Assembly: GCA_030390025.1 (NCBI GenBank)
Contig: CM059432.1
Coordinates: 16,804,001-16,868,000, forward strand
DNA: 64,000 nt
Direction of reading: 5' to 3'
Source of the DNA: Squalus acanthias
Lineage: Eukaryota
Made by a program: the position numbers and the translations under genes. Below the pieces are notes generated by a model. The model ran no database searches. It was not told the origin of the DNA and saw only the letters and a program-made list of their open reading frames with translations. Shown piece by piece: positions 23,136-64,000 of this stretch. Position 1 is the stretch's first letter; each line of letters opens with the position of its first letter.

Positions 23136-24419
23136 TATACGCAACAGGAAGGTCTGAGGTTTGATCGCCAGTCTTAGCTGGGTTAGCTGACTTCAGTCAG
23201 GGCAGAGGTGGTGTTATTGCAATTGGTTTCACTCGCCCCAGGTGAGCGAACTGGAACAAAACCGGAAACCTTCCAACTTATCCATCGATCAATGCTAGAA
23301 AATGCACAGGTGAAGTTGGATTAAGGACCAATTCTCACTCTCAAAGGGTTATACAGTTGGCAAAGTTACTTCAGTAAGGTACTAAAAGCTTTCAGGATGG
23401 TTGAGGGAGAAAAGAAAGGAAAATTCAAAAACAAATCTCCACTGAACTTGTGGGCACGCATTTATTTTGTTGTCACTTTTTATGCTGACAGCAAGTATCT
23501 CGTCGAACAGTGACAATCAGTGCAGTCTGTGGAGTTAATGTGTAATGACATCTTCAATTAAAGGCTAATGATCATGATGTTGCCACTCCAAGTTTATCAT
23601 ACTGTAATCTGCAATTGAATACCAGAAAATTGATGTATATTATCAAGCTACCTACCTTCAGAACCATATTGTATACTCACTAGTCCATTGCTCTATTTTT
23701 ATTAATCATGCACAAGTGGTCAGTTTTCCCTATATTTTGCTAAAGAAAACTGTGTCCATGAAAATAAATTTTAGCTTCAGTGCAACACTTTCCAGTAAAA
23801 GCTTGTTTCAACGATGAGTAAAATCTTGAGTAGATGGAAAATACCCAAGTTGGCATGAATTCAGATTTAAATCACAGGTACAGTGATTTAGACAGCCAAC
23901 AATTTATCTATTAATGATATTTAGACATTAAATGTCATGCTGAAAAATGTTGACGGTACCATATCTTTAAACTGTAGATAACAGAACGAGCTAGTCCAAA
24001 TATGAAGCAAAAACAGTGGCAAATGCCTGCACTTTGGACTTTGGTGCATTAATTGTTAACAAAATGAGGAGCACGGTCAGGTTATAGCAGGTAAATACAA
24101 TCTAACATAGAGGCAAGGTACGACTACAATGCACAAATTAGTTTTTTACGGAAGTGCTTTTTAAAATTTTTGTTCCAGGCAAATGAATTGTCAATTATCT
24201 GATAAAATAATTTAAAAGCACAAACAAGGTCAAACTATGCATAACAAACTAGGACACAGTTGTCAAATAACAAAAGATTTTTCCCCAAAGGCAATTAAAA
24301 AGAATAAATCCTTAAAACAAAAGAAAATGTGTACAAAATATTTTCAACAGTTGTTACACGACTGCCAATTTCTTCTTTCTGTTCATTAAATAGGTAGGAA
24401 TTTCTTTATCTGTCAATAC

Positions 24420-24465
24420 CTCTGGCCCAGCAGACTGGGAATGGACTGCAGCCGCTCCTCTCCAT
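24420..24465 (-). CDS. PTK2: Alternative 5-prime coding exon of focal adhesion kinase (N-terminal extension MERSGCSPFPVCWAR-E)
   Basis: Minus strand reads ATG GAG AGG AGC GGC TGC AGT CCA TTC CCA GTC TGC TGG GCC AGA G|gtattg. The peptide matches the human long FAK isoform segment I recall as MEKSGCSPFPVCWAKE-YDRYLASSKI-MAAAYLDP. The phase-1 donor fits a split Glu codon. The frame is open upstream (TLLPRQQGLFQEAGVVC) to a TAG at 24528-24526. The identification is from memory, not a search. Confidence 0.8.
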
Positions 24466-24950
24466 GCAGACGACACCTGCTTCTTGGAACAGGCCTTGCT
24501 GCCTTGGCAGCAGCGTACACGCTAGCTAGGCCACTGCATACAATGTCTCAATTCAACACTGCCAGTATAGGCTCCAGCAGGGGGCTGGGAAGACACTTCA
24601 ATTTGTTCAGTCCAACACAAAAACCCTGCTTCCTTTCATATGCGCCTTCACGTTAATTCTCCTATTACAGGCTCCACAGTGGTGCAGAACAGCATACAAT
24701 TTCTTCAGCAAAGAACTGCACCAAACCTCCTTCAAGTTTCAGATTCTCCTCATGTTTCTCGAGCCATCCTTTCCAGTGCAAACTGCTAAAAGGCACCACT
24801 GTAGCCTGCAGCCAGCTCCATTTGGAGTTGATTAGCAAGCACCTTATTAATATGCTAATCTCACCCGCAGACTCCTGTTTACAAAACTGACAAGAGAATT
24901 CAACCGATGCCTCACTGCAAATCAAATCTGACCCAGGTCATGACTGTATG
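24466..24950 (-). promoter_or_regulatory. Probable 5-prime UTR/proximal promoter of the alternative PTK2 exon
   Basis: Unique sequence directly upstream of the exon, inside a stretch (about 23340-25625) where I recognised no repeats. FOX-type TGTTTAC at 24876-24882 and nuclear-receptor half-sites TGACCCAGGTCATGAC at 24929-24944. Confidence 0.35.
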
Positions 24951-25627
24951 CCTTCAGATGTGCCTCTGGCATTATGTAGAATTGTTTTTTGCCTTGGTTT
25001 CATTTGAAATTATGCTTAGGGTCAGGTAATAAAAAGATAAAACTTCTGCTTCATCTTGCCGTTTTCCAACCTTAAGAAGAGTGAACTCTTTTTATCACAA
25101 CCTACACAGAGCAGCATTGGAGTCTGAGCACGTACTGCCTGGAAACTAGGGCAGCACTATAATAACCTATCAGTACCACAGCTAGCTCCTGGATCCTCAA
25201 AGGCAGCTTCCATATTTTCCATACAGCTGGGGAGGCAAAGAATGACGATTGACTCTGTTCTTTCAATCGACATGCCAACTACATCATATTGAATTTCATA
25301 CACTATATTCCTAGAATGCTGTCAGGCAGTGTTGAACAGCATTCATCGGCAGACAGGGGTGTTATTAAAATGGTACATGCCTGAAATTATGTGTTTTGAC
25401 TTCAAAGTATTATTTGTACATATGCATTATCATAATTCATGAACAATTTATGTCATCAATGTTAAACACAATATAAATGTGATTACAATGAATCCTATGC
25501 TTGCATCACACATTTTGAATGTCCCAAATTGAGTGCGATGTAACTATGTACAACGATCAAATTTACTGTTTATAATGATCAAATAATTCCCTTTGGGATG
25601 CTAGAGTTCTCCTAGTGCAGCAACTAT

Positions 25628-29299: not shown

Positions 29300-31390
29300 G
29301 ACCGCCGATTTCCACCTCTGTAACATCGGCCAACTCCGCCCTAGCCTCAGCTCATCCGCTACTGAAACCCTCATCCATGCCTTTGTTACCTCTAGACTTG
29401 ACTATTCCAACGCACTCCTGTCCGACCTCCCATCTTCCACCCTCCATAAACTTAAGCTCATCCAAAACTCTGCTGCCCGTATCCTAACTTGCACCAAGTC
29501 CCGTTCACCCATCCCCCATCGCTGACCTACATTGGCTCAGTTGAGCAGCGCCTCAATTTTAAAACTCTCATCTTTGATTTCAAATCCCTCAATGGCATAA
29601 GAACATAAGAAATAGGAGCTGGAGTAAGTCATTTGGCCCTTCGAGCCTGCTCCGCCATTCAACAGGATCATGGCTGATCATCTACCTCAACTCCACCTTC
29701 CCGCACTATCCCCATATCCCTTAATTCCCAAATATTTATCAACCTCTGTCTTGAATATACTCAACGACTGAGCATCCACAGCTCTCTGGGGTAGAGAATT
29801 CCAAATATTCACAACTCTGAGTGAAGAAATTTCTCCTCATCTCAGTCCTAAATGGTCGACCCCTTATTCTGAGACTGTGACCCCGTGTTCTAGATTCCCC
29901 AGCCAGGGGTAACATTTTCTCAACATTAACCCTGTCAAGCCCCTTAAGAATTTTATATGTTTCAATTAGATCAACTCTCATTCTTCTAAACTCTAGGGGA
30001 TTTAGGCCTAAGTCTACTCAGTCTCTCCTCATAGGGCAATCCCATCATCCCAGGAACCAGTCTAGTGAACCTTTGTTGCACTCCCTCTAAGGCAAGTATG
30101 TCTTTCCTTAGATAAGGAGACCAGAACTGTACACAGTACTTCAGGTGTGGCCTCACCAACGCCCTGTATAATTGTAACAAGACTTTTTTTACTCTTATAC
30201 AATAATTCCTTTGTAATAAAAGCTAACATACCATTTGCTTTCCTAATTGCTTGCTGTACTTGCATGTTAACTTTCTGTAATTCATGTACAAGGACACCCA
30301 GGTCCCGCTGAATGCAAACATTTCCCAGTCTCTCACCATTCAAAAAATATTCTGCTTTTTTGTTTTTCCTACTAAAGTGGATAACTTCACACTTCCCCAG
30401 TATATTCCATTTGCCATGTTCTTGCCCACTCAGTCAACCTGTCTATATCTCGCTGCAGCCTCTTTGCGACCTCCTCACAGTTTACTTTCCCACCTAACTT
30501 TGTATCATCAGCAAACTTGGATACTTTACACTCAGTCCCTTCATCGAAGTCATTAATATAAATTGTAAATAGCTGAGGCCCAAGCACTGATCCTTGGGGT
30601 ATCCTGATCCTTGCGGTACCCCGCTAGTTACAGCCTGCCAACCCGAAAAAGTCCCGTTTATTCCTACTCTCTGTTTTCTGTCCATTAACCAATCCTCAAT
30701 CCATGCTAATATATTACCCCCAATCCCATGAGTCCTAATTTGGTGTAATAACCTCTTGAACCTTATCGAATGCTTTTTGAAAATCCAAATACACTACATC
30801 CACTGGTTCCCCCTTAGGTTCCATCCTACTAGGAACATCTTCAATAAACTCGAACAGATTTGTCAAACACGATTTCCTTTTCATAAAACCATGTTGACTC
30901 TGCCTAATCATGTTATGATTTTCTAAGTGTCCTGATACCACTTCCTTAACAATGGATTCCAGCATTTTGCCTACTACTGGCCTATAATTCCCAGTTTCTT
31001 CTCTTCCTCCTTTCTTAAATAGTGGGGGCATCACCCCTCTCTATCTCTGTAACCTCCTCCAGCCCTACAACCCTCCGAGATATCTGCGCCCCTCCAATGC
31101 TGGCTTCTTGAGCATCCCCGATTTTAATTGCTCCACTACTGGCGGCCATACTTTCAGCTGCCACGGCCCTAAGCTCTGTAATTCCCTCCATAAACATCTC
31201 CACCTCCCTACCTCTCTTTCCTCCTTTCAGATGCTCCTTAAAACCTACCTCTTTGACCAAGCTGTTGGTCATCTGCCCTAATATCTCCTTATGTGGTTTG
31301 CTGTCAAATTTAGTTTGATAACATTCCTGTGAAGCGCCTTGGGACGTTTTACTACGTTAAAGGCTTACATAAATATAAGTTGTTGTTGTT
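29300..31390 (+). mobile_element. L2 LINE 3-prime portion split by an antisense CR1
   Basis: [15 protein letters not shown]...IQNSAAR at 29370-29480, continuing at about 31030 to a (TTG)n tail. GGCAT is duplicated at both junctions. Confidence 0.85.
29599..31026 (-). mobile_element. CR1 LINE RT fragment inserted in L2
   Basis: [27 protein letters not shown] and LVRPHL motifs on minus, with CATAAGAA tail. Confidence 0.92.
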
Positions 31391-32139
31391 GACATGGCAT
31401 GTCAAACAGTGATGGAAGCAGAAAGGGAAATGGATAAATATTTGAAAAAGAAAAAATAAAGGGAATGAGGGGAGGCTAATGGCTCTTTCCGTGCTGCAGA
31501 ATCCTTTGATTCTCTGAAATAGGGTGATTTACTCAAAGTGTATTTGTAATTTGGATCTACTCAGAATTTCTGCCTTCAATCCATGTACACAGTACTTCTG
31601 AATTAGTAGGTGGTCAACTCGCAAAATCCCATTGCAGTTTCAATGATTGAAAAACAGCTCCTCTGTTGGCTGGGATTTCGTGTGAAATTATGCTGGGCTG
31701 TGTCAAACCAGTTTCATGTGGGAATGGACCACACCTCAAAACTGCCCCTTTCTTGATGCTTAATCAGCAATCGCACTCAGAAATTACTCCTCAGGATGAT
31801 TAATGTGGAAAATGGAAATGCCATGCTAATTTAATTGGGGATCTTCTTCAAAGTTGTGTCCGAGGCATATTTTGGGGAAGAGTGGAGGGAGCTTATGCAT
31901 GATACCAACAATTGTGTTCCATTCCTCAGCATCCACATTTCTCATCTCAAAATAGGTAGCAGTTACAACACGAAACAGGTCATTTAGCCCAACGAGTCCA
32001 CGTCGGTGTTCACCCTCCACGTGAGCAAATATTCTAATCATATTTACCCTGTTCCCATATCCCTTCAAACCCTTTACCTTCATCTATCTAATGAAAAAAG
32101 CCCCAATTTTTCCAAGTCATTCTACGTATTTCTATGGGA

Positions 32140-32378
32140 AAACTACTACCTCCAAGTTCCCCTCCAAGACGCGCACCATTCTGAATTGGAAGTATATCAC
32201 CGATCCTTCATCATCGCTGGGTCAAAATCCTGGAACTCCCTCCCTAACAGCACTGTGGGAGTACCTTCACCACATGGACTGCAGCGGTTCAAGGCGGTGG
32301 CTCACCACCACCTTCTCAAGGACAATTGGGGATGGGCAATAAATGCTGGCCTTGCCAGCAATGTCCACATCCTGTGAA
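32140..32378 (+). mobile_element. 3-prime end of the second CR1-group LINE family (as 50604-52090)
   Basis: GGGTCAAAATCCTGGAACTCCCTCCCTAACAGCAC...GGGCAATAAATGCTGGCCTTGCCAGC, near-identical to 51930-52060. Further fragments at about 19740-19845 and 42943-43028. Confidence 0.8.
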
Positions 32379-32411
32379 CAAATTTTTTAAAAATTCCTCA
32401 CACCAGGCAAT

Positions 32412-33124
32412 GGGCCGAAAATTGATCCCGGGACGCGAGAGTACGCACTGCATACTCTCGCGTATTCCCACTCCAATTGCCGGTTTTCTGCATGCCCTGC
32501 GCATGCGCTGAAAACCGGCAATTGCTCTTCTGAAAAGGGGGCGGGGCCTGGGTGCATCGCGTGCGCGCTACAGGCTGCGCGCACGCTGTGCACTTCATGC
32601 TTTGGACGCGCAGGTAAGTAGGGAAGATTTTGGAAATGTAAAAAGGAGGAGTAAGACCCGCTTTTAAGGTGGTAAGTAGTGAATTAAGTATTTTTTTGAA
32701 TTTTTTTTTACAGGTATATCTTTTTTATAGACTTTAAAGACAGGTAAGTTTATTTTTATAACTTTTTAAAAGATTTTAAATTTTTTCAAAAATTTAATTT
32801 TTTATTTAAAATGGTTAATTTAATTAACTATACTTATTTTATTAATGTGATGGGTTTTTTTTTAAATTTAATTGAGGTTTAGCTGTTATTTTGGGGGGGT
32901 GTAAGATTCATAAGTCCAGCGGTGTGCTGCCATTGGCTCTAACTGAGTCACGTGATCCCACAGCTCGCATGAATTAACTACGCCGCTGGGATACGCAAGC
33001 CCAGCACAGCTGATGTCTGGAACATCAAGTTCGTGCGAGCTGGATCAGAAAAAGCATAAGCGAGGTGAGACATCGCGGGGAAGGCTTACCCCCGCGGGAA
33101 CAGAGCGAGATCAATTTCTGGGCC
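32412..33124. mobile_element. CpG-rich MITE, PIF/Harbinger-ISL2EU group-like
   Basis: Imperfect 19-bp TIRs GGGCCGAAAATTGATCCCG / CGAGATCAATTTCTGGGCC with AT on both flanks. AT-rich centre. Confidence 0.7.
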
Positions 33125-33385
33125 ATTATCCTAGTAAATCTGTGTTGTACCCTCTCTGAAATCTCAGTATCCTCGAAGATTTAAAAAAAGCTAAGAAAAA
33201 ATAATGGGATTAAAGGGACAGTGGCAGTGTGGATACGAAATTGGCTAAGGGACAGAAAGCAGAGAGTGGTGAACGCTTGTTTTTCAGACTGGAGGGAGGT
33301 ATACAGTGGTGTTCCCCAAGGGTCGGTATTAGGACTACTGCTCTTTTTGATATATATTAAATGACCTGGACTTGGGTATACAGGG

Positions 33386-35100: not shown

Positions 35101-36391
35101 GTGCTAAGTTAACAAAGATTGCAAGCCACATATCAGAGATGGAAGAAATTTTAAATATAAATTGTGGAGAGCAACCAAAATACAAATAATTAGGGGATAG
35201 CAATAGATTAATATTTTAAATACTTTCACATTTAATTTTATGAGCAATGCACTGAGAGATTAACTATTACTGACAAAAAATATAATTTTTGGATTATTTA
35301 AAAATATATATTTTGGGGGTCATATGATGATTGTTTTCAAGCTGTCTGCCCTGGAGTTAGATGTCAGAAATATTATTGATAATATTTGCATTTATATAGT
35401 GCCCCATTACATTGCTGACATCACAAAGCATTTGTACATTGAATTACTTGTGACAGAATTATTTTCTCCTATTCAGTATTCGCGTCCAATATAACAAGAG
35501 TACAGTATGAACAGTTTTGATAGAGTAAATCGAGAGAAACTGTTTCCAGTGATAGAAGGGTTGGTAACCAGAGGATACAGATTTAAGGTAATTGACAAAA
35601 GAGCCAGAGGTGAGATGAGAATTTTTTTTACGCAGCAAGTTATGATTATCTGGAATGCACTACCTGAAAGGTGGAAGGAGATTCAATAGTAACATTCAAA
35701 GGAGAATTGAATAAATACTTGAAGGCAAAAAAATTACCGGGCTATGGGGAAAGAGCGGGGGGAGTGGGATTAACTGGATAGCTCTACCTAAGAGCCGTAC
35801 AGGCACAATGGACCGAATGCCCTCTTTCTGTGCGGTATCATTCGATGATTCTATAAATACACACCAATGACAACCACTATGTTTTATTTTTCAGAAGACA
35901 AAAGCAACTTGAGGTACAAACATGTTACTCAGCACAACTGCATACAGGGATGGGCAATAAATGTAACCTTTCCAGTGTCATACACATCCCGAGAACAAAT
36001 AAAGAAAACTGCATCTTAAATCAAACAGAATGGCCCTTATCAGTTAAATATGTTGCACACAGTGAAAATTGTAGTTACTTGTTCAGTAGTCTCTTCAGAT
36101 CAGTCAAATGTCCTGAAACCACAACACATTAATTTGGATGTGCCTGGCAACTCTACCAGAAGAAACAAGGAAAATATTAAAACAACAAAAATTTGCAGAA
36201 AAATCTAAATTTAGCAAACTTACAAATAAAATGTTTAAGACCCACTTTCAATTTTGAAATATCTTATAAAGCACTCAATTTATATGTTGCACTCCATCAA
36301 TTTCCTTTAATACAAATGAACTTTTCAAACTAACTCACCAATGAAAATGCATTCCATTCATTTGAAATGCGCAAGTTGTTGTATTTATTCA

Positions 36392-37452
36392 AAGATGGGA
36401 GGGAAAGTAGTGAGTGAGGAGGACATAAAAAACCTGCAAGGGGACATAGACAGGCTAAGTAAGTGGGCAGAGATTTGGCAGATGGAATACAACACTGGAA
36501 AGTGTGAGGTGATGCACTTTGGCAGGAAAAATCCTAGAGCAATTTATTATCTTAATGGCAAGAAACTGGAGAGTACTGAAGTGCAAAGGGATCTGGGGGT
36601 CCTGGTGCACGAAACTCAAAAGGTTAGTATGCAGGTGCAGCAAGTGATTAAGAAGGCAAATGGAATGTTGGCTTTCATTGCTAGGGGGATAGAATATAAA
36701 AATAGGGAGGTATTGCTTCAGTTGTACAAGGTATTGGTGAGACCGCACCTGGAATACTGCATACAGTTTTGGTGTCCTTACTTAAGGAAAGACATCCTTG
36801 CTCTCGAGGCAGTGCAAAAAAGGTTCACTCGGTTAATCCCGGGGATGAGGGGGTGGTCATATGAGGAGAGGTTGGGTAGATTGGGACTCTACTCATTGGA
36901 GTTCAGAAGAATGAGAGGCGATCTTATTGAAACATATAAGATTGTGAAGGGGTTGGATCGGGTGGATGCGGGGAGGATGTTCCCGATGACGGGTGAGACT
37001 AGAACTAGGGGACATAGTCTTAGAATAAGGGGCTGCTCTTTCAAAACTGAGATGAGGAGGAACTACTTCACTCAGAGGGTGGTAGGTCCATGGAATATGC
37101 TGCCACAAAAAGCTGTAGAAGCTACAACATTAATTAAATTTAAAACAGAAATAGACAGTTTCCTAGAAGTAAAGGGCATTAAGGGTTACGGGGAGCGGGC
37201 AGGAATTTGGACATGAGTCTAGGTTCGGATCGGTCATGGCCCTGTGGGTAGTGGAGCGGGCCCAGGGACTGTGTAGCCTGATTCTGCTCCTATTTCGTGT
37301 GTGCAATTCTGTTAGATGCAGGAGATGGTTCTGTGATAGATAGTAGATTGGCGGTTAGGATCAGATCAGCCATGATCTTATTGAATGGCGGAGCAGGCTC
37401 GAGGGGCCGATTGGCCTACTCCTGCTCCTATTTCTTATGTTCTTATGTTCTT
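36392..37452 (+). mobile_element. Young 5-prime-truncated CR1 LINE with an intact C-terminal ORF2 frame
   Basis: About 275 uninterrupted codons (LQGDIDRLSKWA...LVRPHLEYC...GIKGYGERAG) and a (TTCTTATG)n tail. Same subfamily as 52771-55459. Confidence 0.95.
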
Positions 37453-38889
37453 ATTTACCATGAAGACACAATCCTTCAAGAGCATGATCGGATTTTTCTT
37501 GGCATATCTGTATTTTTCCTTTGCATGCTCACAAAACGGAATATGGAAAAATAAATTATTTTGCTAAATAGTAAATAAATACTATAGTTATCCCACTGTT
37601 CTTTGTGAGCTCCAAAGTGTCACTAGTCCAAGCATGGATTATTATTAGCTCGGTATGCCTAGTAGTTTAGTTCAATTCCCATGAAAGCTTCACATACACG
37701 ATTCTGGTTCACAACTCTTCTAATGTCCCAGTTTTGAAATCACTGCAACGTGCTAACAGGCTATTAATGGAATGCCACGACAAAGTCACTCTCATGTCTG
37801 AGTTTTCTTATTCACTTCCCATATACAGAAGCTACAGAAAGTCTTGCACAGAAGCTGTAACAGTATCTGGTAAACTGCATAACGAAGCATCAACCAGATT
37901 TCTTGCGCATTACGATTTTAGCAGGATCTTCCAATTTTACAAGTTAATTCTGAAGGTGACTCACTGTTTCAACTTTGGGGCGGCATTCCCAATTTTGCAG
38001 TATTTCAGATTTGCTGCATTCACTATACAATGGCCATCTACTCAGAAATACACTGATATTTTGGACTATTTAATTCGTTCACAACAATCACCCATTCCTT
38101 TTAAATGGGATTCACAGCTATTCAGTTCATACATGTTGTTTTCTTTTTAAATTATGAATTATTTTGTGTTGATATTTAGTCTGGTTCTTTTCTATAACGT
38201 TTATATTTTCAGATTGTTAAGTCAGAGCCAAATTCCGTGGCAGTTTCAATGTGATTGGTCATCCAGACAGACAGTGTGCTGACTAATTGTCAGAGTGAAA
38301 TAAAATTAAGCGTAGCATTAAAACAGTTGAAACTAGAGACAGATGCAGAGAGTAAAGGTCACACACTGCAAAATGTAATATGTTCATGCAAGTTATATCT
38401 CATGCTTTGAGACTCCCAGGGAATAATTGTGCAAAAGCTACCTGCACATATACCCAACTACAATCAAGTCAAACAACAGGTGAACTGTTGCCTACTTATA
38501 TCACCTTATGAATCAGCCAAGATAACTGTGTTGAGAGGAATCACGTATAACAGCTGGGCTGTCAGCTAGTTGTACGGTACTCAGCATAGGAACAGCAGTG
38601 GGCCATTCGGTCCCTCGAGCCCATTCAATCATTATGGCTGATCCTCAGCTAAAAAGATAATCATTTGTTCAAAAAAATTAATAAAACAGCTCTACCGCTC
38701 ACCAGATCAGTTACTTCATTATCGGTTTTGGTGAATGTTGATCTTGATGGTTATGAGTAATACATTAGATTTACAATGGAAAGTGTATAAAACTGAAAAT
38801 GAGTGCAACAAAACAGATTTTGCATTAGTGATGCAAAACCACGGACCAGGAATGGCAATGAGGGTGCTACAATTGGACAAAACAGTACT

Positions 38890-40301
38890 TAAAAGAGAGC
38901 AGGACCCAAGGACAGCATGGACCTGGAAGGAGTCAGCAGCAGATTATAAAGAGAGTGGGACCCGAGGACAGCATGCACCAGGAAAGAATTGGCAGCAGAG
39001 GCGGCAGAGAATGGGCGCACGGTGGCATAGTGGTTAGCACTGGTGCCTCACAGCGCCAGGGACCCGGGTTCGAATCCGGCCTCGGGTGACTGTCTGTGTG
39101 GAGTTTGCACATTCTCCCCGTGTCTGCGTGGGTTTCCTCCGGGTGCTCCGGTTTCCTCCCACAGTCCAAAAATGTGCGGGTTAGGTTGATTTGGCTATGA
39201 TAAATTGACCCTTAGTGTTAGGGGGGGATTAAATATGTGGGGTTACGGGGATAGGATGGGATATGTAAGGGGGAATTAAATACGTGGGGTTACGGGTATA
39301 GGGTGGGATATGTGTCGGTGCAGGCTCGATGGGGATTCTGTGTGGGAAAGCAGGGACAGGGTACTGGATTTGGATGATCAGCCATGATCGTATTGAATGG
39401 TGGAGCAGGCTCGACGGGCCGAATGGCCTACTCCTGCTCCTAGTTTCTATGTATAAAGAGAGCGTGACCAGAGGACAGCACAGACCTGGAAGGAGTCGGC
39501 AGAGAATAAAGAGAGCGTGACCCGAGGACAGCACAGACCTGGAAGGAGTCGGCAGAGAATAAAGAGAGAGGGACCAGAGGACAGCACAGACCTGGAAGGA
39601 GTCGGCAGCAGAGGCGGCAGAGAATAAAGAGAGCGGGACCAGAGGACAGCGCGGACCTGGAAGGAGTCAGCAGAGAATAAGGAGAGAGGGACCAGAGGAC
39701 AGCACAGACCTGGAAGGAGTCGGCAGCAGAGGCGGCAGAGAATAAAGAGAGCGGGACCAGAGGACAGCACGGACCAGGAAAGAATTGGCAGCAGAGGCGG
39801 CAGAGAATAGAGAGCGCGGGACCCGAGGACAGCACAGACCTGGAATGAGGCGGCAGCAGAGGCGGCAGAGAATAGAGAGAGTGGGACCCGAGGACAGCAC
39901 AGACCTGGAATGAGGCGGCAGCAGAGGCGGCAGAGAATAGAGAGAGCGGGACCCGAGGACAGCACAGACCTGGAATGAGGTGGCAGCAGAGGCGGCAGAG
40001 AATAGAGAGAGCGGGACCCGAGGACAGCACAGACCTGGAATGAGGCGGCAGCAGAGAATAGAGAGAGCGGGACCCGAGGACAGCACAGACCTGGAATGAG
40101 GCGGCAGCAGAGGCAGCAGAGAATAGAGAGAGCGGGACCCGAGGACAGCACAGACCTGGAATGAGGCGGCAGCAGAGGCGGCAGAGAATAGAGAGAGCGG
40201 GACCCGAGGACAGCACAGACCTGGAATGAGGCGGCAGCAGAGGCGGCAGAGAATAGAGAGAGTGGGACCCGAGGACAGCGTGGACCTGGAATGAGGCGGC
40301 A
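38890..40301 (+). repeat. Tandem array of about 16 monomers of 54-65 bp, abutting a CR1 5-prime end
   Basis: Unit AATAGAGAGAGYGGGACCCGAGGACAGCACAGACCTGGAATGAGGCGGCAGCAGAGGCGGCAGAG, 65-nt period at 39871/39936. Two units lie before the SINE insertion and about 14 after. Confidence 0.95.
39013..39452 (+). mobile_element. V-SINE (HE1-type)
   Basis: tRNA head (GGTGGCATAGTGGTTAGC, GGTTCGAATCC), V-domain GTGTGGAGTTTGCACATTCTCCCCGTGTCTGCGTGGGTTTCCTCCGGGTGCTCCGGTTTCCTCCCAC and CR1/HER1-derived tail GATCAGCCATGATC...CCTACTCCTGCTCC. Confidence 0.92.
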
Positions 40302-41815
40302 GTACAAATCCGGCAAATTCCAAAAAAACAAAGTGATGTCACAGGACAGCAGGTAGGTGATTGGTGGGTGAGTATTAACTTTTTTTTCTCTAACTTAACT
40401 AGATAAACTAATTAAAATAACTATAAATAATCGTTTGAATAAAGACTTTAACTAAGAGAGCGAGAGAAGTGGCCAGAGATAAAGGTAGGCCCAACTTTTA
40501 AGAATCTAAGTCTTAAGTTTATTTCTGTAAGTTAGCTAATAGTCTATTAAATAGAGGCATGACAGGGCACCTCAGCCCCGTGGAATGCACATCTTGTGCC
40601 ATGCGGGAACTCCAGGATGCTTCCCGTGTCCTGGATGATTACATGTGCAGGAAGTGTCATCAACCGGAGGAGCTCGAGCTCCGGGGTTTCAGCAGCTGGC
40701 ATCACTGCAGTGCATCCGTGAGGCTAAGAGCTTCATGGAGTTTTCAGGAGGTGGTCACCTCGCAGCTTAAGAGTGTGCAGGCAGAGAGGGAATGGGTGAC
40801 CGTCAGACAGACAAGGAGGACCAAGCAGGAAATCCACGAGTCCAACTACTGGTGAGGGCGATGGTTCCTCTGGGGAGTACAGCCAGAGCCAAGTTCACGG
40901 CACCATGGGTGGCTCTGCTGTACGGGAAAGGGGGGGGGGGGGGGGGAGGAGGAAGATCGGGAAAGCAATAGTGGTAGGGGATTTGATAGTTAGGGGAACA
41001 GAGAGGCGGTTCTGCGGCCGCAGACGTGATTCCAGGATGGTATGTTGCCTCCCTGGTGCCAGGGTCAAGGATGTCACTGAACGGCTGCAGAACATTTCGA
41101 GGGGGGGAGGCTGAACAGCCAGAGGTCGTTATCCATATCAGTATCAACGACAGAGGGGAAAAAGGGATGAGGTCCTGCAGGCAGATTTTATGGAGCTAGG
41201 AAAGAAATTAAAAAGCAGGACCTCAAAAGGTAGTAATCTCTGGATTACTCCCGGTGCCACGAGCTAGTGAGTATAGAAATAGGAGGACAGAGCAGATGAA
41301 TGCATTGCTGGAGAGATGGTGCGGGAGGGTTTTAGATTACTGGCTGGACGTAGCAATAGAAGGGAGAAAAAAAGTGCACAAAGGATTGGGCGAGACAGAT
41401 AGCACTAGAGTAAGAAATAGTAAGGTATTAGGTGGGGTCAGACTAAGAGAGAATACAAGAAGGTCTAAGATAGGTTTACAGTGCATGTGTGTAAATGCAC
41501 AAAGCGTGGTAAATAAGGTTGGTAAACTGCAGGCACAAATAGCCACATGAGACTATGATATCGTGGTGATAACAGAGACCTGGCTCAAAAAAGGGTCGGA
41601 TTGGGTATTAAATATTCCTGGATATAAGGTGTTCAGGATAGATAAGGAAGGAAAGAAAGGAGGCAGTATTGGTTAAGGAGAATGTTACAGTGCTGGAGAG
41701 AGAGGATGTCCTGGAGGGGTCAAGGACAGAATCTATTTGGTTAGAGTTAAGAAATAATGGAGGAGCCATTACATTACTAGGTGTATTCTATAGGCCACCA
41801 ACTAGTGGGAAGGAT
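40302..41815 (+). mobile_element. CR1 LINE 5-prime part: 5-prime UTR, ORF1 (zinc finger + SGNH esterase-like) and start of the ORF2 endonuclease
   Basis: ORF1 from 40559 with CTSC...CRKC, IVVGDLIVRG and VCCLPGARV. Endonuclease VNAQSVVNK, ITETWL and FYRPP. Ends at a DeuSINE. Confidence 0.88.
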
Positions 41816-47345: not shown

Positions 47346-48694
47346 TACAGCCAGTGCAGAGGTGGGGTTTACTAAGTGGGGGGCAACTGCAGCCATTAGG
47401 TTTTTGAGGGAATGGATTAGCAGCCAATGGATAGGTTGAAACTGGAAATGCATCCGAGAGGACAGGTTTAAGTTGCATATAAATACACGTTGTTGTTGCT
47501 GCATCAGTGTGAGGGACGGGCCATTTTTTTTGCATCTGTATTTTTCCCCATCTGGTTTCATTTCTTGCTCAGCTGGAGGTGGGGGCTGTTGATGGCCGAA
47601 ATCTTCCTCGGCAGCGGTGGTGGTTGGGAGATAGAATCGAAGTTTGCCTCAACCGGATGGGATGGGAAGGAGCAATATTAGCTCTGGGAGGGAATGGTTG
47701 AGGGCCTAAATTGTGCTCAGCTGGCAGGCACTGAGTTGTACACTTGGACAGTTCAAGACCTCCCAATAGTATATTTTTTTTAACAAATTAGCTGAGGACC
47801 TACAACAGATGTCAGGCTCAGTGATCTGTAATTTCCAGGACAGGCCTTTTGCCTCTTTTTATAGAAAGATAGATGCTATGTTCCTTTTTCTTATATTTTG
47901 ACTATTACTCTGGTTTCTTTAAAATGATTGACTGACTGATACAAAAAGGGGGAAAAATAAGTCACAGCTAAGATGGAAGCTGATTTTTCATGCCACGGTG
48001 TTCCAAATGATCCATCAGACAACGGAAAAACCATTTGCAACAATTATGACTTCAGTAATATCACTAGCTCACCAAGGAACCCACAATAAAATGGAAAGGA
48101 AGAGAACAGTGATAAAATTGCAAAAGCCAACCTAGAAAAAACGTAAACCCAGCACAGATCCTTGCCTCACTCTTCTTGACTGGTAAAACACACAAGCGAC
48201 ATAGTGGACAGCTCACCAGCTAAAAGTCAATTGGGCAGACAAACCAAGACACTCCTCCGCAAGCCAACTTGGGTAAATGATACAAAAGAGAAGTTATACC
48301 TCAGATAAGCTAGATAGAGCCAATTCTACAATAATGCCAACAAAGAACTTAGCAAAGAGAATTTGTCAGAATTCAGCTGACGGGAAATGGGATGTGGATG
48401 GCAGTCCATGCAATGCAATAGCAAGTGACTATCAGATCCCTCAATGCAAAAATTGAAGATGGAAAGGTGTGCAAAAAAACCTGGAGACAACTGAGAGCGC
48501 GCGCGTGTGTGCAAGAGACAGGGAGAGAGAGAGAGAGAGACAGAGAGCGCAAGGCGTGAGAGAGCACAAAATGGATGGGGAAGAGACAGAGAGAGAGCAT
48601 ATTAACACTAAGAAATTAATATATGCACCAGAGTTATGTTATTTTTAAATTAATTACTGCAGTATTTTTTGTTACTGACAATAAAGGTTATATA

Positions 48695-49065
48695 CAGGAA
48701 ACTGTTGTTTATCCGGCACCCAAATATCCGGAATTCTCGCTTAACCGGCAAAAATCATCCTCCGAAAACTCCTCTCAAATAACCAGCAATGTTGCCGAGT
48801 CGCAGTCGAGTCTCCGCGAACGCCGAGTACTCCGAAAACTCCTCTCAAATAACCGGCAATGTTGCCGATCCCGAGTCCGAGTCCGAGAACGCCGATTTAG
48901 TCAGTAGGGGTAGTTTTCAAAAGTACCCAAATACTGTATACTGCACATTTCTTGATTTATTTATTTTTCTTTGTTAAAAATAGCCTCGGTAGATATAACT
49001 CTCGGTTATCCGGTACTTTCGATAAACCGGCACCACGCCGGTCCCGGTTAATAAAGAGTTTCCTG
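48695..49065. mobile_element. Tc1/mariner-pogo (Tigger-like) MITE
   Basis: TA|CAGGAAACT...AGTTTCCTG|TA. Right end shared with 62835-62908. Confidence 0.8.
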
Positions 49066-49633
49066 TACTAACATTTAAAAAACACACTAAATTGACAAAT
49101 AATCATATCCCTCAATTTTGTTGTTTTTAAATATGAAGTACATAGAAATACATTGACGTTACAACACAAAAGCAGGTCATTTGGTCCAACCAGTCCTTAT
49201 GAAACAAAAATAGCAATTCCTTCAACTGAGCTGGCTCCTTCCACTAGCTACAATTTGCATGCCAAAGCCTTTCTCCAATTTACACGCCAAAGCCTTTCTC
49301 CAATTTACACAATCTTCTCTGGGAGGTGGGTTAGAGTAAACTTAAAGCTTTTAAAACTTCTTTGTGTCATGAAGGTAATCCAGCTAAAAAAAGGATCAAT
49401 CTGTATTTTTCAACCCTGACTAATTGTGCTCTGCAGATATAATTCCTCTGATCCCAACAAGATTGGTACCACATGATCCATACAGTATTTGATCATCTAC
49501 CTCATACTTCCTAACCAAATAGACTGATCCTTTATAAAACAGTTAAAAGACAGAAAATTCAATGCTTTTCTCAATCAGTTAGGTTGTTCTTGTTCTGCCA
49601 TTACAAGTTAAATAACTAGCTTGTTAATATAAT

Positions 49634-50190: not shown

Positions 50191-50603
50191 TCCTGTGAAC
50201 CTTTGTTCCCGTAAAAAGTGCCGCCATATACCTAAACCACTCATCTCTGAAAGCATCTTAGTAAATCTTCTGTGCTCCATATCATTGATACCTTTACGAA
50301 AGTAGGGCACCCAAAACTGGACACAATATTATAATTCCAGCCGAAGCAGTGATTTGTATAGGTTTAATGTTGCCTCTTTGCTTTTGTACTCAACGCCCCT
50401 ACTTATAACACCAATTCATGCCCTTCTGAAGTCATTTACAGTCCCCCTTACAGGTAACCACTCTCCCATTTTTGCGTCACCTCAAAATCTTGATAGTACA
50501 CCTTATACCTGAGTCCAAACCATTTCTATATATATTATGAAGAACAATGGTACAAACAAGGACTCTTGGGGAACACACTCTTTACATAACATAAGAAATA
50601 GGA

Positions 50604-52090
50604 CAAGACTTGTGCTCCAGGACTAGCCGCGCCTCTCGCCAAGCTGTTCCAGTACAGCTACAACACTGGCATCTATCCGACAATGTGGAAAACTGCCCAG
50701 GTATGTCCTGTCCACAAAAAGCAGGACAAATCCAATCCGGCCAATTACCGTCCCATCAGTCCACTCTCAATCATCAGCAAAGTGATGGAAGGCGTCATCG
50801 ACAGTGCTATCAAGCAGCACTTACTCACCAATAACCTGCTCACTGATGCCCAGTTTGGGTTCCGCCAGGACGACTCAGCTCCCAACCTCATTACAGCCTT
50901 GGTCCAAACATGGACAAAGGAGCTGAATTCCAGAGGTGAGTTGAGAGTGAATGCCCTTGACATCAAGGCAGCATTTGACCGAGTCTGGCATCAAGGAGCC
51001 CTAGTAAAACTGAAGTCAATGGGAATCGGGGGGAAAACGCTCCACTGGCTGGAGTCATACCTAGCACAAAGGAAGATGGTTGTGGTAATTGAAGGTCAAT
51101 CATCACAGCCCCAGGACATCACTGCAGGCGTTCCTCAGTGCAGTATCCTAGGCCTAACCATCTTCAGCTGCTTCATCAATGACTTTCCCTCCAACATAAG
51201 GTCAGAAATGGGGATGTTCACTGATGACTGCAGTGTTCAATGCCCTTCGCAACTCCTCAGATAATGAAGCAGTCCATGCCCGCATGCAACAAGACCTGGA
51301 CGACATTCAGGCTTGGGATTATAAGTGGCAGTTAACATTTGCACCACACAAGTGCCAGGTAATGACTGTCTCCAACAAGCGAGAGTCTAACCACCGCCCC
51401 TTGACATTCAACGGTATTACTATCGCTGAATCCCCCACCATCAACATCCTGGGGGGTCACCATTGACCAGAAACTTAACTGGACCAGCCACATAAATATT
51501 GAGGCAACAACAGCAGATCAGAGGCTAGGTATTCTGCGGCGAGTGTCTCACCTCCAGACTCCCCAAAGCCTTTCCACCATCTACAAGGCACAAGTCAGGA
51601 GTGGGATGAATACTCTCCATTGCCTGGATGAGTGCAGCTCCAACAACACTCAAGAAGCTCGACACCATCTAGGACAAAGCAGCCCGCTTGATTAGCACCC
51701 CATCCACCACCTTAAACATTCACTCCCTCTACCACCGGCGTACCGTGGCTGCAGTGTGCACCATCTACAAAATGCACTGCAGCAATTCACCAATACTACT
51801 TCGGCAGCACCTCCCAAACCCGCAACCTCTTGCACCTAGAAGGACAAGGGCAGCAGACGCATGGGAACATCACCACCTCCAAGTCACACACCATCCTGAT
51901 TTGGAAATATATTGCTGTTCCTTTATCGTCGCTGGGTCAAAATCCTGGAACTCCCTCCCTAACAGCACCGTGGGAGTACCTTCACCACACGGACTGCAGC
52001 GGTTCAAGAAGGGGGCTCACCACCACCCTCTCAAGGGCAATAAATGCTGGCCTTGCCAGCGACGCCCAGATCCTATGAACAAAAAAAAAC
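50604..52090 (+). mobile_element. Second CR1-group LINE family, RT to poly(A)
   Basis: WKTAQVCPVHKK, NYRPIS, QFGFRQ, LDIKAAFDRVWH, GVPQCSILG and FTDD motifs. AATAAA and an A-tail. TSD TAAGAAA(T/C)AGGA (50592-50603, 52091-52102). Confidence 0.9.
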
Positions 52091-55000
52091 TAAGAAACAG
52101 GAGCTGGAGTCGGCCATTTGGCCCTTCGAGCCTGCTCCGCCATTCAACAAGAGCATGGCTGATCTTCTACCTCAACACCACCTTCCCGCACTATCCCCAT
52201 ATCCCTTAATTCCAAAAATGTATCAACCTCTGTCTTGAATATACCAAACGACTGAGCATCCACAGCTCTCTGGGGTAGAGAATTCCAAAGAATCACAACC
52301 CTTTGAGTGAAGAAATTTCTCCTCATCTCCGTCCTAAATGGCCGACCCCTTATTCTGAGACTGCGACCCCGTGTTCTAGATTCCCCAGCCAGGGGAAACA
52401 TTTTCTCAGCATTAACCCTGTCAAGCCCCTTAAGAATTTTAGATGTTTCAATTAGATCAACTCTCATTCTTCTAAACTCTAGGGAATATAGGCCTACTCT
52501 ATTCAATCTCTCCTCATATGGCAATCCCCTCAACCCAGGAACCAGTCTAGTGAACTTTCGTTGCACTCTCTCTAAGGCAAGTGTGTCTTTCCTTAGGTAA
52601 GGAGACCAGAACTGTACACAGTACTCCAGGTGTAGCCTCACCAATGCCCTGTATAATTGTAGTAAGACTTTTTTACTCTTATACAATAATTCATTTGTAA
52701 TAAAAGCCAACATACCATTTGCTTTCCTAATTGCTTGCTGTACTTGCAGGCTAACTTTGCGATTCATGTATCGAATAACTAGGGCTGTAGAGAGGGCTTT
52801 AAACTAATTAGTGGGGGGGGGTTTCAAGAGAGCAAAAAATAAAAATGTCAGCGGAGAAGGCAATAGAGCAAAGTAGCAGTGGGGTAATTAAAAACCAGAG
52901 CGTGTCAGGAAGGGACAGAATATATAAAGATAAAGGTAAAGTAGTAAAGGGGGTAAAAGCAGGAATAAATTGTCACAAAACATATTTAAAAGTTCTTTAT
53001 CTGAATGCACGCAGCATTCGTAACAAAATAGACGAATTGACGGTACAAATAACTACGTATGGGTATGATCTTGTGGCCATTACAGAAACATGGCTGCAGG
53101 GTGACAACGATTGGGAATTAAATATGCCAGGGTATTTAACAATCAGGAAGGACAGACAGGAAGGAAGAGGAGGTGGGGTAGCTATGTTAATAAAGGAAGG
53201 AATCACTGTATTACAGAGAAATGATATTGGGTCAAAGGATCAGGATAATGAAACAGTTTGGGTGGAGATAAGGAATAATAAAGGGAAAAAAACACTAGTG
53301 GGAGTAGTATATAGGCCTCCTAATAGTTGCAACTCTGCTGGAAGAAGTATTAATCAGGAAATAGTTGGGGCATGTAATAAGGGAACAGCTATAATTATGG
53401 GGGATTTTAACTATCATATTAACTGGACAAATCAAATTGGGCAGGGCAGCCTTGAGGAAGAGTTTATTGAGTGTATTAGGGATGGATTTCTTGAGCAGTA
53501 TGTAACTGATCCTATATAAGGTAGCCAAACTTAGTGGGAGGATAGAAGATTGGGAAGTCTTCAAAAGACAGCAAAAAGTAACTAAAGGATTGATTAAGAA
53601 AGGGAAGGTAGATTATGAAAATAAATTGGCAAAAAATATAAAAACAGATAGCAAGAGTTTCTATAGTTATATAAAAAGAAAAAGGGTGGCTAAGGCAAAC
53701 GTAGGTCCCTTAGAGGATGAGACCGGGAAATTAATGGTGGGAAACATGGAGATTGCAAAAATGCTGAACAAATAATTTGTTTCAGTCTTTACGGTAGAGG
53801 ACACTAAGAATATCCCAACACTGGACAAACAGGGGGCTCTAGGGGGGGAGGAGCTAAATACGATTAAAATCACTAAGGAATTGGTACTCAGTAAAATAAT
53901 GGGACTCAAGGCGGATAAATCCTAGGGTCTTGAGGAAAAGTGGCAATAGGGATTGTGGATGCTTTGGTAATAATTTTCCAAAATTCCCTGGACTCAGCAA
54001 AGGTCCCGGCAGATTGGAAAACTGCTAATGTAACACCCTTATTTAAAAAGGGTTGTAGGCAGAAAGCTGGAAATTATAGACCAGTTAATCTAACATCTGT
54101 GGTGGGTAAAATTTTGGAGTCTATTATTAAGGAGACAGTAACGGAACATTTAGATAAACATAATTTGATAGGACAAAGTCAGCATGGCTTTATGAGGGGA
54201 AATCATGTCTGACAAATTTGCTCGAGTTCTTTGAGGACATAACGTACAGGGTGGATAAAGGGGAACCAATGGACGTAGTGTATTTAGACTTCCAGAAGGC
54301 ATTCGACAAGGTGCCACATAAAAGATTATTGCTCAAGATAAAAAATCACTGGATTGGGGGGAATATTCTGGCATGGGTGGAGGATTGGTTATCTAACAGG
54401 AAGCAGAGAGTTGGGATAAATGGTTCATTCTCGGACTGGCAACCAGTAGCCAGTGGTGTTCCGCAGGGGTCGGTGCTGGGTCCCCAACTCTTTACAATCT
54501 ATATTAACGATTTGGAGGAGGGGGATTTGGCAGATGCAATACAATATTGGAAAATGTGAGGTTATGCACTTTGGCAGGAAAAATCAGAGAGCAAGTTATT
54601 ATCTTAATGGCGAGAAACTGGAAAGTACTGCAGTACAAAGGGATCTGGGGGTCCTAGTGCAAGAAAATCAAAAAGTTAGTATGCAGGTGCAGCAGGTGAT
54701 CAAGAAGGCCAACGGAATGTTGGCTTTTATTGCTAGGGGGATAGATTATAAAAACAGGGAGGTATTGCTACAGTTATATAAGGTATTGGTGAGACCGCAT
54801 CTGGAATACTGCATACAGTTTTGGTGTCCATACTTAAGAAAAGACATACTTGCTCTCGAGGCAGTACAAAGAAGGTTCACTCGGTTAATCCCCGGGATGA
54901 GGGGGTGGACATACGAGGAGAGGTTGAGTAGATTGGGACTCTACTCATTGGAGTTCAGAAGAATGAGAGGCGATCTTATTGAAACATATAAGATTGTGAA

Positions 55001-55962
55001 GGGGCTTGATCGGGTGGATGCGGTAAGGATGTTCCCAAGGATGGGTGAAACTAGAACTAGGGGGCATAATCTTAGAATAAGGGGCTGCTCTTTCAAAACT
55101 GAGATGAGGAGAAACTTCTTCACTCAGAGGGTAGTAGGTCTGTGGAATTTGCTGCCCCAGGAAGCTGTGGAAGCTACATCATTAAATAAATTTAAAACAG
55201 AAATAGACAGTTTCCTAGAAGTAAAGGGAATTAGGGGTTACGGGGAGCGGGCAGGAAATTGGACATGAGGCTGAGTTCAGATCGGTCGAGGCCCTGTGGG
55301 TGGCGTAGCGGGCCCAGGGGCTGAGTGGCCGGGTCCTGCTCCTACTTCTTGTGTTCTTTAGATTTGAGGTGAGGATCAGATCAGCCATGATCTTATTGAA
55401 TGGCGGAGCAGGCTCGAAGGGCCGATTGGTCTACTCCTGCTCCTATTTCTTATGTTCTTATGTACAAGGACACCCAGGTCCCTCTGAATGCAAACATTTC
55501 CCAGTCTCTCACCATGCAAAAAATATTCTGCTTTTTTGTTTTTCCTACCAAAGTGGATAAATTAACACTTCCCCAGTGTATTCCATTTGCCATGTTCTTG
55601 TCCACTCAGTCAACCTGTCTATATCTCTCTGCAGCCTCTTTGCATTACTTACTTTCCCACCTAACTTTGTATCATCAGCAAACTTGGATATGTTACTCAG
55701 TCCCTTCATCTAAGTCACTAATATAGATTGTAAATTGTTGAGGCCTAAGCACTGATCCTTGCGGTACCCCGCTAGTTACAGCCTGCCAACCTTAAAAAGT
55801 CCCGTTTATTCCTACTCTCTGTTTTCTGTCATTAGCCAATCCTCAATCCATGCTAATATATTACCCCCAATCCCATGAGTCCTAATTTTGCGTAATAACC
55901 TCTTGTGTGGCACCTTATTGAATGCTTTTTGAAAATCCAAATACACTACATCCACTGGTTCC
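52091..55962 (-). mobile_element. Antisense CR1 (tail at 50584-50603; body 52091-52770 and 55460-55962)
   Basis: 207-aa ORF at 52144-52767. The element continues at TGTACAAGGACACCC after the sense insert. Highly similar to 29599-31026. Confidence 0.9.
52771..55459 (+). mobile_element. Young CR1 LINE ORF2 (endonuclease + RT) with internal deletions
   Basis: ORFs 52845-53519 (YLNARSIRNK, ITETWL, YRPP, MGDFN), 53940-54559 and 54453-55268. ATGTA duplicated at 52766-52770 and 55460-55464. (TTCTTATG)n tail. Confidence 0.95.
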
Positions 55963-61635: not shown

Positions 61636-62546
61636 CATAAGAACGTAAGAATTAGGAGCAGGAGTAGGCCATATGGCCCCTCATGGCTGATCTTCGATCT
61701 CAACTCCACTTTCCCACCCGATCCCCATGAGTCCAAAAATCTATCCATCTCAGCCTTGAATATACTCAACGACTGAGCATCCACAGCCCTCTGGGGTAGA
61801 GAATTCCAAAGATTCACAACCCCGAGTGAAGAAATTCCTCCTCATCTCAGTCTTAAATGGCCGACCCCTTATCCTGGGACTATGCCCCCTAGTTCTAGAC
61901 TTTCCACCCAGGGGAAACAACCTCTCAGCATCTACCCTGTCAATCCCCCTCAGAATCTTGTGTTTCAATGAGATCCCCTCTCATTCTTCTAAACTCCAGA
62001 GAATGTAGGCCCAATCTACTCAATCTCTCCTCAGAGGACAACCCTCTCATCCCAGGGATCAACCTAGTGAACTTTTGTTGCACTGCCTCGAAGGCATGTA
62101 TGTCCTTTCTCAGATAAGGAGACCAAAACTGTGCCCAGTACTGTAGATGTGGTCTCACCAAAGCCCTGTACAATTGCAGTATACTTCCTTACTCTTGCAC
62201 TCCAACCCCCTTGCAATAAAAGCCAATATGCCATTTGCCTTCCTAATTGCTTGCTGTACCTGTATGCTAACTTTCTGGTTTCCTGTAGGAGGACACCTAA
62301 ATCTCTCTGAACACCAACGTTTAATAGTTTCTCACCATTTAAAAAAATTCTGTTTTTCTATTCTTGCTACCAAAGTGAATAACCTCACATTTCCCCACAT
62401 TATACTCCATCTGCCACCTTAATGCCCACTCACTTAAACTGTCTAAATCCCTTTGCAGGCTCTGGGTCCTCCTCACAACTTACTTTCCCACCTAACTTTG
62501 TATCATCAGCAAACTTGGATACATTGCACTTGGTCCCTTCATCTAC
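61636..62546 (-). mobile_element. Antisense CR1 3-prime fragment nested in the large CR1
   Basis: LVRPHLQYWAQFWSP and FADDTKLGG on minus, with CATAAGAAC tail. Confidence 0.9.
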
Positions 62547-62548
62547 TA

Positions 62549-62908
62549 CAGGAAACTCTCTTTTAACCGGCAGCCAAATAACCGGAAATCTCTCTTAACC
62601 GGCAAAATTCTTGAGTAGGTAACCGGGGTTTTCCTTCATCTCTCCTTTAAAAATAACTTTTTAAAAACCGAGGCGTTTGCCTTGTATCGGAGCATATAGA
62701 TTGGGAGGGGAATGTGCAGCCCGGGTAGGCAGCGGACACGACAGATGGTCAGCTGGCGGTCCCCGGGGAGACGGAGCTCCGAATGCAGGCGCATGTCAGT
62801 GTGTACGGGACTCTCGTACGTTGGGAGATATAGCTCTCTGTTATCCGGACTTTTTGATAAACCGGCACCACGCCGGTCCGTCGGTGCCGGTTAATAAAGA
62901 GTTTCCTG
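62549..62908. mobile_element. Tc1/mariner-pogo (Tigger-like) MITE
   Basis: TA TSD. 24-bp TIRs CAGGAAACTCTCTTTTAACCGGCA / TGCCGGTTAATAAAGAGTTTCCTG (2 mismatches). Confidence 0.85.
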
Positions 62909-64000
62909 TATTTCCGCTGGTTGGGGAGTCTAGGACTAGGGGACATAGCCGGAGAATTAGAGCCAGTCCTTTCAGGAGTGAAGTTAGGAAACACTTGTAC
63001 ATGCAAAGGGTGGTCGAAGTTTGGAACGCTCTTCTAAACGGCAGTTGATGCTGGGCCAATTGTTAATTTAAGACTGATAGATTTCTGTTAACCGAAGATA
63101 TTAAGGAATATGGAATAAAGGCGGGTACATGGAATTAGGTCACAGATCAGCCATGATCTCACTGAATGACGGAACAGGCTCAAGGGACTAAATGGTCTAC
63201 TCCTATTCCTATGTTAAGATTTCTGATCATCTTCAATAATTGATGTTTGCATTTTATCAAGTAGGATTGAGGAAGGAAATTCTATGGGAACACTATGTTC
63301 TCAATATTCTACCTCTTTAAAGAAAATAAGATACACGCCTGAAATTTCTATATGTTTTGGTAAAAATATCAATTTTTTCATTACTATGGAAACGCTCAAG
63401 TTGGGTCATTTTCTCAGCTAGACCAGTCTGCTGACATCACTGCCGAGGAGCATTTCAAAATGGTTCCATACTAAACAACTGGGTCACAATTCCTACTTCG
63501 GTAAAAATCATGTTAATGCTATATGACTCTATATATTTATTATTCTTACTTGCTCCAGAAGTACCACTGTGACCTCTCTGTCAGTCTGTTGCAACAAATA
63601 CAGCTAAGACATAGCATTTCCTCCAAATAATCATGAGCAAGTAGATTACCCACTTTCTCTGCACACTCTTGTACTATCTCTCTCGTCTCAAATTATTTAC
63701 CAGGACTCACTTGTCTTGTAGCCTGATGCCACATGACAATTAATACCTAAAAACAATGAAAAGCAGTGACGTTTTTGTGAAAGTTTTTCGAATCAATTGC
63801 AAAAAAATTGTTCAGCAGCATTTTGAAGTTAATGTCATCTATAATGAAATGAGATGCAATAGAACTGAAATTTGTGCCAAGTTAATTTATTATATAAAGT
63901 ACTGCTAAATTTTGTGTCTCCAATTATATTATCTTGTCATTTTAATTCAGTGTGTCTTTTTCTCTATGCTGTTTTATTTGTAATAATGATTTTGTCTTTG

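Follow-up and report, generated by a model that had tools for sequence, protein, structure and literature searches.

A conserved alternative 5' exon of PTK2, shared by Squalus acanthias and tetrapods, and the short FAK extension that it probably encodes

Does a short open frame on the minus strand of this Squalus acanthias contig belong to PTK2, and what would it add to the FAK protein? FAK has been studied intensively, both as a kinase and as a drug target, and mostly in its 1052-residue form; to become active it must be recruited to membranes and freed from autoinhibition by its FERM domain. In the 64,000-nt stretch of DNA analysed here (the window), an earlier note had read this frame as a TAG (24528-24526), an ACG (24516-24514), an ATG (24465-24463) and a last G at 24420 followed by a GT (24419-24418), and every one of these elements is found where it was placed. 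The exon belongs to PTK2/FAK, and it is real and spliced. The coordinates of its features are collected in Table 1.

Table 1. Features of the PTK2 5' exon and its flanks in the window.
Feature	Position	Strand	Remarks
Acceptor-like pyrimidine tract and AG, the sole one in 24500-25600	25227..25244	-	Would make an 807-nt internal exon
Second conserved block, candidate promoter or regulatory element	24780..24941	.	Few X11 differences; perfect 8-nt inverted repeat
5' leader, rest of the same exon, at least to 24941	24529..24941	-	Continuous X11 contig 24420-24941
Upstream ORF, 5 codons, out of frame	24522..24539	-	ATG equivalent is in frame with FAK in the relative P0001
In-frame TAG, closes the frame upstream	24526..24528	-	Opposite a Trp codon in P0008 and P0068
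ACG near the place of the tetrapod upstream Met	24514..24516	-	Weak context; probably no start
Open in-frame stretch above the ATG	24466..24525	-	Without ATG; homologous to the variable segment of 17-20 residues after the tetrapod upstream Met
Likeliest start codon	24463..24465	-	Pyrimidine at -3, G at +4; corresponds to the Met invariant in 54/54 distinct tetrapod leaders
Coding core	24420..24465	-	ATG plus 14 codons (MERSGCSPFPVCWAR) plus one base of the phase-1 split codon
5' splice site in use	24414..24419	-	GT at 24419-24418; intron extends past the left end of the window

The earlier note had assigned the frame to an alternative PTK2 exon, and the assignment is borne out: the peptide matches annotated FAK isoform N-termini, and the GT at 24419 is used toward FAK's first canonical exon. 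The long human FAK isoform that the note had invoked exists in the form of annotated models, such as isoform X34 (XP_047278003.1). The near-identity to human that it had claimed is likewise present, with 13 of the 15 core residues from ATG 24465 shared with X34 and both mismatches being K/R. When residues 19-33 of X34 were scored against the six frames of the window (ungapped BLOSUM62; self score 91), the best score was 85, at this exon. Because the second-best place in the window reached 31 and the maximum over 100 mononucleotide shuffles was 38, the match is not due to chance. A tblastn search with 6 FAK proteins found a single place in the window at E < 0.05, namely the exon, and the window therefore holds no second PTK2 coding exon. 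Consistent with this, a motif scan of the window found no canonical FAK start exon, and no FAK exon lies within 1-24419.

Protein searches led to the same gene. A profile-free search with the open stretch of 35 residues returned 8 proteins; seven are genomic read-through ORFs carrying the same peptide, and when one of these ORFs was used as the query, named FAK1/PTK2 models accounted for 50 of 55 matches. Residues 17-56 of the human protein retrieved 480 proteins, and named FAK1/PTK2 models made up 118 of the best 120 of these 480. The FAK1 models among the matches listed came from mammals, marsupials, squamates, a turtle, a crocodile and frogs, with birds present as cluster members; no full-length fish model was among the best 120 of the 480. 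All protein records behind the extension are automated models or ORF calls. One candidate, P0004 (733 aa, 36% identity), resembles the peptide by chance and was discarded. A weak, word-limited search with residues 33-72 of P0001, the closest protein relative (87% identity), gave no candidate among longer proteins. For the peptide itself, a PDB sequence search gave 0 matches, Pfam gave 0 families and the ESM Atlas gave only unnamed matches at 0.80 or lower, with no usable Atlas match for human residues 1-60. A metagenome scan for the peptide reduced 396 pattern matches to 3 loci, none of them a homologue; all three show one and the same fortuitous match, antisense to a long unrelated ORF and lacking both an ATG and a donor.

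The splice donor was examined in contigs from sequencing runs. Of 22 listed runs, 20 carry part of 24300-24900; their records mark 0 as RNA, and 14 of the holders were taken to be RNA by guess. Contigs were compared from four runs (X1, X2, X3 and X11), whose RNA nature is likewise guessed, and X3 ends short of the junction. The contigs of the other three, which represent three organisms and three studies, depart from the window exactly at 24420, as expected if the GT at 24419 is the donor. Past this point their loose ends (26-28 letters, translated by hand) read Y-D/E-R-H-I-A after the split codon and contain no stop. Tetrapod models read Y-D-R-Y/H-L/I-A at the same place, and Table 1 of PMC1570463 prints the same Y-D-R-Y/H-L/I-A leader. 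Since the loose ends at 24420 read as the tetrapod FAK leader, the donor 24420/24419 is in use and splices in frame to the first canonical exon of FAK over the first 8-9 codons, the length that the loose ends cover before they stop one or two box A codons short of the canonical ATG. In principle, the junction contigs could alternatively derive from a retrocopy. The zero cover to the left of 24420, the failure of X3 to extend to the junction and the 0.00 shares of X21 and X22 carry no weight as evidence here.

Other loose ends were rejected as junctions. The X2 end at 25081 matches the window at 25084-25113 in 27 of 30 letters by eye, and the ends at 23156-23211 and 25508-25546 were set aside as short pieces with 80-90% likeness. 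Separately, X2 has a 152-nt contig at 23550-23700, in non-repeat intron sequence about 720 nt past the donor, which is possibly a conserved intronic element or pre-mRNA.

At its other end, the exon extends beyond 24528, where the earlier note had drawn its 5' boundary. Only the in-frame stop lies there; the junction contigs run on to 24662 (X2), 24710 (X1) and 24941 (X11), and further X2 contigs cover 24665-24791 and 24891-25081. The exon is at least 520 nt long, and over the 243-522 nt of contig above the donor in X1, X2 and X11 no upstream splice junction was seen. We rather favor a first exon with its own promoter, with the proviso that contigs cannot reveal transcription starts. The exon may instead be an 807-nt internal exon that uses the acceptor at 25227, a site whose use was not seen in the X1, X2 and X11 contigs. 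Caution about a separate first exon also comes from PMC1570463, since the transcripts that it lists are compatible with a single promoter beside exon -4.

The leader thus delimited, 24529-24941, contains 7 ATGs, each opening an ORF of 4-15 codons. Because of these seven upstream ATGs, initiation at 24465 would drop unless transcription starts further down. Within the leader, the 162 nt of 24780-24941 hold 3 of the 38 listed differences between X11 and the window, versus 34 in the adjoining 251 nt. This block contains a perfect 8-nt inverted repeat (arms 24830-24837 and 24853-24860) that overlaps an octamer-like site at 24852. We take the repeat and the octamer-like site to resemble a paired POU or homeodomain site, and on this likeness the block is a candidate tissue-specific promoter element. 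Rfam gave 0 matches in the 64,000-nt window, and RNA folding gave no z score below -1.7, with -1.60 for 24420-24534 and 0.64 for the core.

Upstream exons of FAK have been described before. Corsi et al. 2006 (PMC1570463) report FAK 5' exons -1 to -4 together with box A, and give 87% mouse-human identity for exon -1, which may be the counterpart of the Squalus exon. As here, their upstream exons are spliced to the first coding exon, and box A is in frame in their exon -3bH variant. In contrast to the present reading, the passages concerned call the upstream exons untranslated and discuss an extension only for the primate exon -3bH.

The extent of conservation was assessed in the leaders of tetrapod FAK models. 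There are 58 distinct leaders, of which 54 were used; the four left aside are one read-through model, one that has a different exon, one partial model and one that begins at the canonical start. Nine of the 15 core positions (M1, E2, G5, C6, P8, F9, P10, C12 and W13) and 5 of the 11 box A positions (E16, Y17, D18, A22 and S23) are invariant in all 54. Both cysteines and the P-F-P..C-W arrangement are therefore fixed in every distinct tetrapod leader, and Cys6 and Cys12 are also present in the window exon. Changes elsewhere in the tetrapod leaders are mostly conservative (K/R, V/I/M, S/T, L/I and Y/H). Over 63 distinct rows, the majority residue has a mean share of 0.946 in the core, 0.925 in box A and 0.918 in canonical residues 1-33, and of 0.642 in the 17 residues that precede the ATG; the core and box A values are inflated because the rows were picked by likeness to the peptide (best 120 of 480). 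Toward its end the core is otherwise fixed, but single lineages differ there (P0044, P0050-P0053; P0057-P0062; P0148-P0151): Ala14 is replaced by Asp in the chimpanzee and by Pro in Nannospalax, and vampire and nectar bats have Glu instead of Lys15.

The Squalus exon is the one found in the tetrapod long FAK1 models of RefSeq and UniRef, human X34 (XP_047278003.1) included, and as in those models it is joined in phase 1 to the first canonical exon. The exon is common to the Squalus acanthias genome, the three organisms of the runs and tetrapods from frogs to human. From this distribution we infer that it is older than the split of sharks and bony vertebrates.

The tetrapod models, which are predictions, differ from the Squalus exon above the ATG. 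Fifty-one of the 54 leaders have an upstream in-frame Met, located 18 codons up in 30 leaders, 19 in 16, 17 in 3, 20 in 1 and 31 in 1, and the remaining 3 models begin at the second Met, the equivalent of ATG 24465. Most tetrapods could thus make a form extended by 43-46 residues from a Met 17-20 codons up, whereas the Squalus genome has no ATG there, only an ACG near the place and then the TAG. The earlier note had set this ACG opposite the first Met of the mammalian isoform and proposed it as a possible near-cognate start. The codon is indeed present in frame, but its pairing with the tetrapod upstream Met requires gaps: of the 12 best pairwise alignments, 4 place the Thr encoded by the ACG against that Met, 3 place it at another residue and 5 do not extend to it.

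It is very improbable that the ACG at 24516 or a nearby CTG serves as the start and so keeps the longer, tetrapod-type extension of 43 residues. The ACG lies 17 codons above the ATG with no stop between, within the range of the tetrapod Met (17-20), and its neighbors are those of P0008, a Cys before it and Leu-Leu after it. Its exact 8-nt context, however, has an efficiency of 0.2 in the mouse-cell FACS-seq data of the PMC5778536 supplement, on a scale where the reference AUG stands at 100 and an ACG placed in the reference context at 32.2, and the remaining in-frame near-cognate codons reach 0.2-2.8 in that supplement. The ACG bases carry no listed difference in X1 or X11, and the frame is kept in both. 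The same is not true of P0001, in which 11 nt fewer separate the ACG position from the ATG and the frame is lost, as judged from one ORF on one contig. A modest hairpin just downstream of the ACG (z -1.69) was equaled in stability by 14 of 200 shuffles. The case resembles extensions initiated at non-AUG codons (ACG/CUG) in having an in-frame near-cognate codon above the ATG, and differs from them in its very weak context and in the loss of frame in a relative.

P0001 follows another frame of the window up to the codons overlapping the ACG and then the FAK frame, with a net loss of 11 nt. This takes the ACG position out of the FAK frame and brings the counterpart of the ATG at 24539 into it, 21 codons above the second Met. 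The P0001 lineage may accordingly have a longer extension of its own that starts at this ATG. Judging from this switch in P0001 (a single ORF), the reading frame is not maintained above the last 11 codons.

We consider that the exon probably encodes a translated FAK extension of 26 residues that starts at ATG 24465. The alternative PTK2 5' exon, probably a first exon with its own promoter, is spliced in phase 1 to the first canonical exon. Under this proposal, ribosomes starting at ATG 24465 would read 15 exon codons, 11 box A codons and the normal FAK frame. With a context no better than moderate, ATG 24465 would be expected to show leaky scanning, in which some ribosomes go on to the canonical ATG and probably make normal FAK from the same mRNA. 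Box A, long classed as 5' UTR, is suggested to be coding in the extended isoform.

The main alternative to translation is that the exon is a conserved noncoding leader or regulatory element, in which the peptide is a by-product of constraint on DNA or RNA and nearly all protein comes from the canonical ATG. The comparison with X11 bears directly on this. Among the listed differences, 1 falls in the 109 nt of 24420-24528 and 37 fall in the 413 nt of 24529-24941 (Fisher p 0.0016, or 0.17 if all 4 unlisted differences fell in the core). The lone difference is nonsynonymous and lies above the ATG, within 24466-24516; none of the 38 listed differences lies in the 46 nt of the core (24420-24465), which therefore has no listed synonymous change. 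Constraint at the nucleotide level could thus explain part of the conservation, the more so as the noncoding block at 24780-24941 is about equally conserved. The moderate context of ATG 24465, the seven ATGs above it and the classification of the upstream exons and box A as untranslated in the relevant passages of PMC1570463 point the same way. The tetrapod changes, on the other hand, are mostly conservative by amino acid, the length of 26 residues is constant over two exons with the phase-1 junction kept, box A is open and conservative in X1, X2 and X11, and strong RNA folding is absent from both 24420-24534 and the core. On this balance we regard a purely noncoding role as improbable and retain the translated extension as the preferred reading.

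If the extension is translated, its likeliest role would be membrane targeting: S-acylation of the two invariant cysteines would hold FAK at membranes and favor its activation. We put this forward tentatively, with a chance a little below even. It is suggested by the position of the invariant cysteines beside aromatic residues and by residues spanning the splice junction that may form an amphipathic stretch, with a hydrophobic moment of 0.60 (p 0.02 for this peptide segment, about 0.10 after allowing for the choice of segment). N-myristoylation needs Gly at position 2, and it is ruled out because Glu2 is found in the window exon and in 54/54 tetrapod leaders. AlphaFold2 run on the alignment of leaders (A2) gave a mean pLDDT of 34, which is uninformative.

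A translated extension could also act without a lipid anchor, as a tag for protein binding, redox control or stability, for example through an S-P-F-P-x-C-W docking motif or a Cys switch on the adjacent FERM domain. S-acylation usually does not require invariant Pro, Phe and Trp, so the invariance of these residues exceeds what acylation alone would call for, and the lack of Gly2 for myristoylation agrees with such a tag. N-terminal truncations and F1-lobe mutations alter FAK autophosphorylation, according to passages of PMC11298715, and a neighboring extension could therefore modulate autoinhibition. A docking partner or motif was not identified, however, and two invariant N-terminal cysteines fit a known precedent for acylation: short alternative N-termini make GRIP1b and GRIP2b targets of palmitoylation, as described in parts of PMC6365469. 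We judge the tag somewhat unlikely within the translated reading.

Like these cytosolic scaffolds, FAK would acquire a short alternative N-terminus, here with two invariant cysteines. Unlike in GRIP1b and GRIP2b, where the N-terminus is replaced and acylation has been demonstrated, the FAK N-terminus would be added to and its acylation is inferred; no sequence relation between the two is expected. S-palmitoylation of FAK at C456 promotes its localization to membranes and its activation, as stated in sections of PMC10795333. Taken together, the proposals describe a tissue-specific, lipid-anchored FAK from a second promoter, kept since before the shark/bony-fish split, S-acylated on two invariant cysteines, more easily activated and missed by standard cDNAs and assays. 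That all of these parts should hold at once is unlikely.

The exon is not new, since it is already contained in tetrapod RefSeq and UniRef models. New here are the depth of its conservation and its splicing in three further organisms. In the open literature we found no study of the FAK extension and no match to the peptide itself. The isoform passages of a 2024 review (PMC11298715) name only boxes 6, 7 and 28, and the relevant parts of PMC6846653 and of two bioRxiv preprints concern other PTK2 exons. Neither the main text nor the sole supplement of PMC11317171 mentions PTK2, an absence that carries no information on an isoform that is already annotated. The extension is thus annotated and apparently unstudied. 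Nearly unchanged from Squalus to human and conserved like the canonical N-terminus, it points to an overlooked proteoform, and the hypothesis is short and directly testable through two cysteines and one junction peptide.

The remainder of the window looks intronic. Of its 64,000 bases, 25,101 have a second copy inside the window, and three of the four long ORFs scanned are pieces of retroelement reverse transcriptase or endonuclease. Broken copies of LINE-type retroelements lie at 264-2627, 29596-31391, 36320-37453 and 50602-55962, with reverse transcriptase or endonuclease domains confirmed in three ORFs. A tandem array at 39546-40302 (period about 65 nt, 12 copies, 88% matches) has long open frames on the minus strand. 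Finally, three segments of ordinary GC content (32251-33250, 48501-49250 and 62501-63250) have local CpG observed/expected ratios of 0.8-1.3, compared with 0.39 for the window as a whole.
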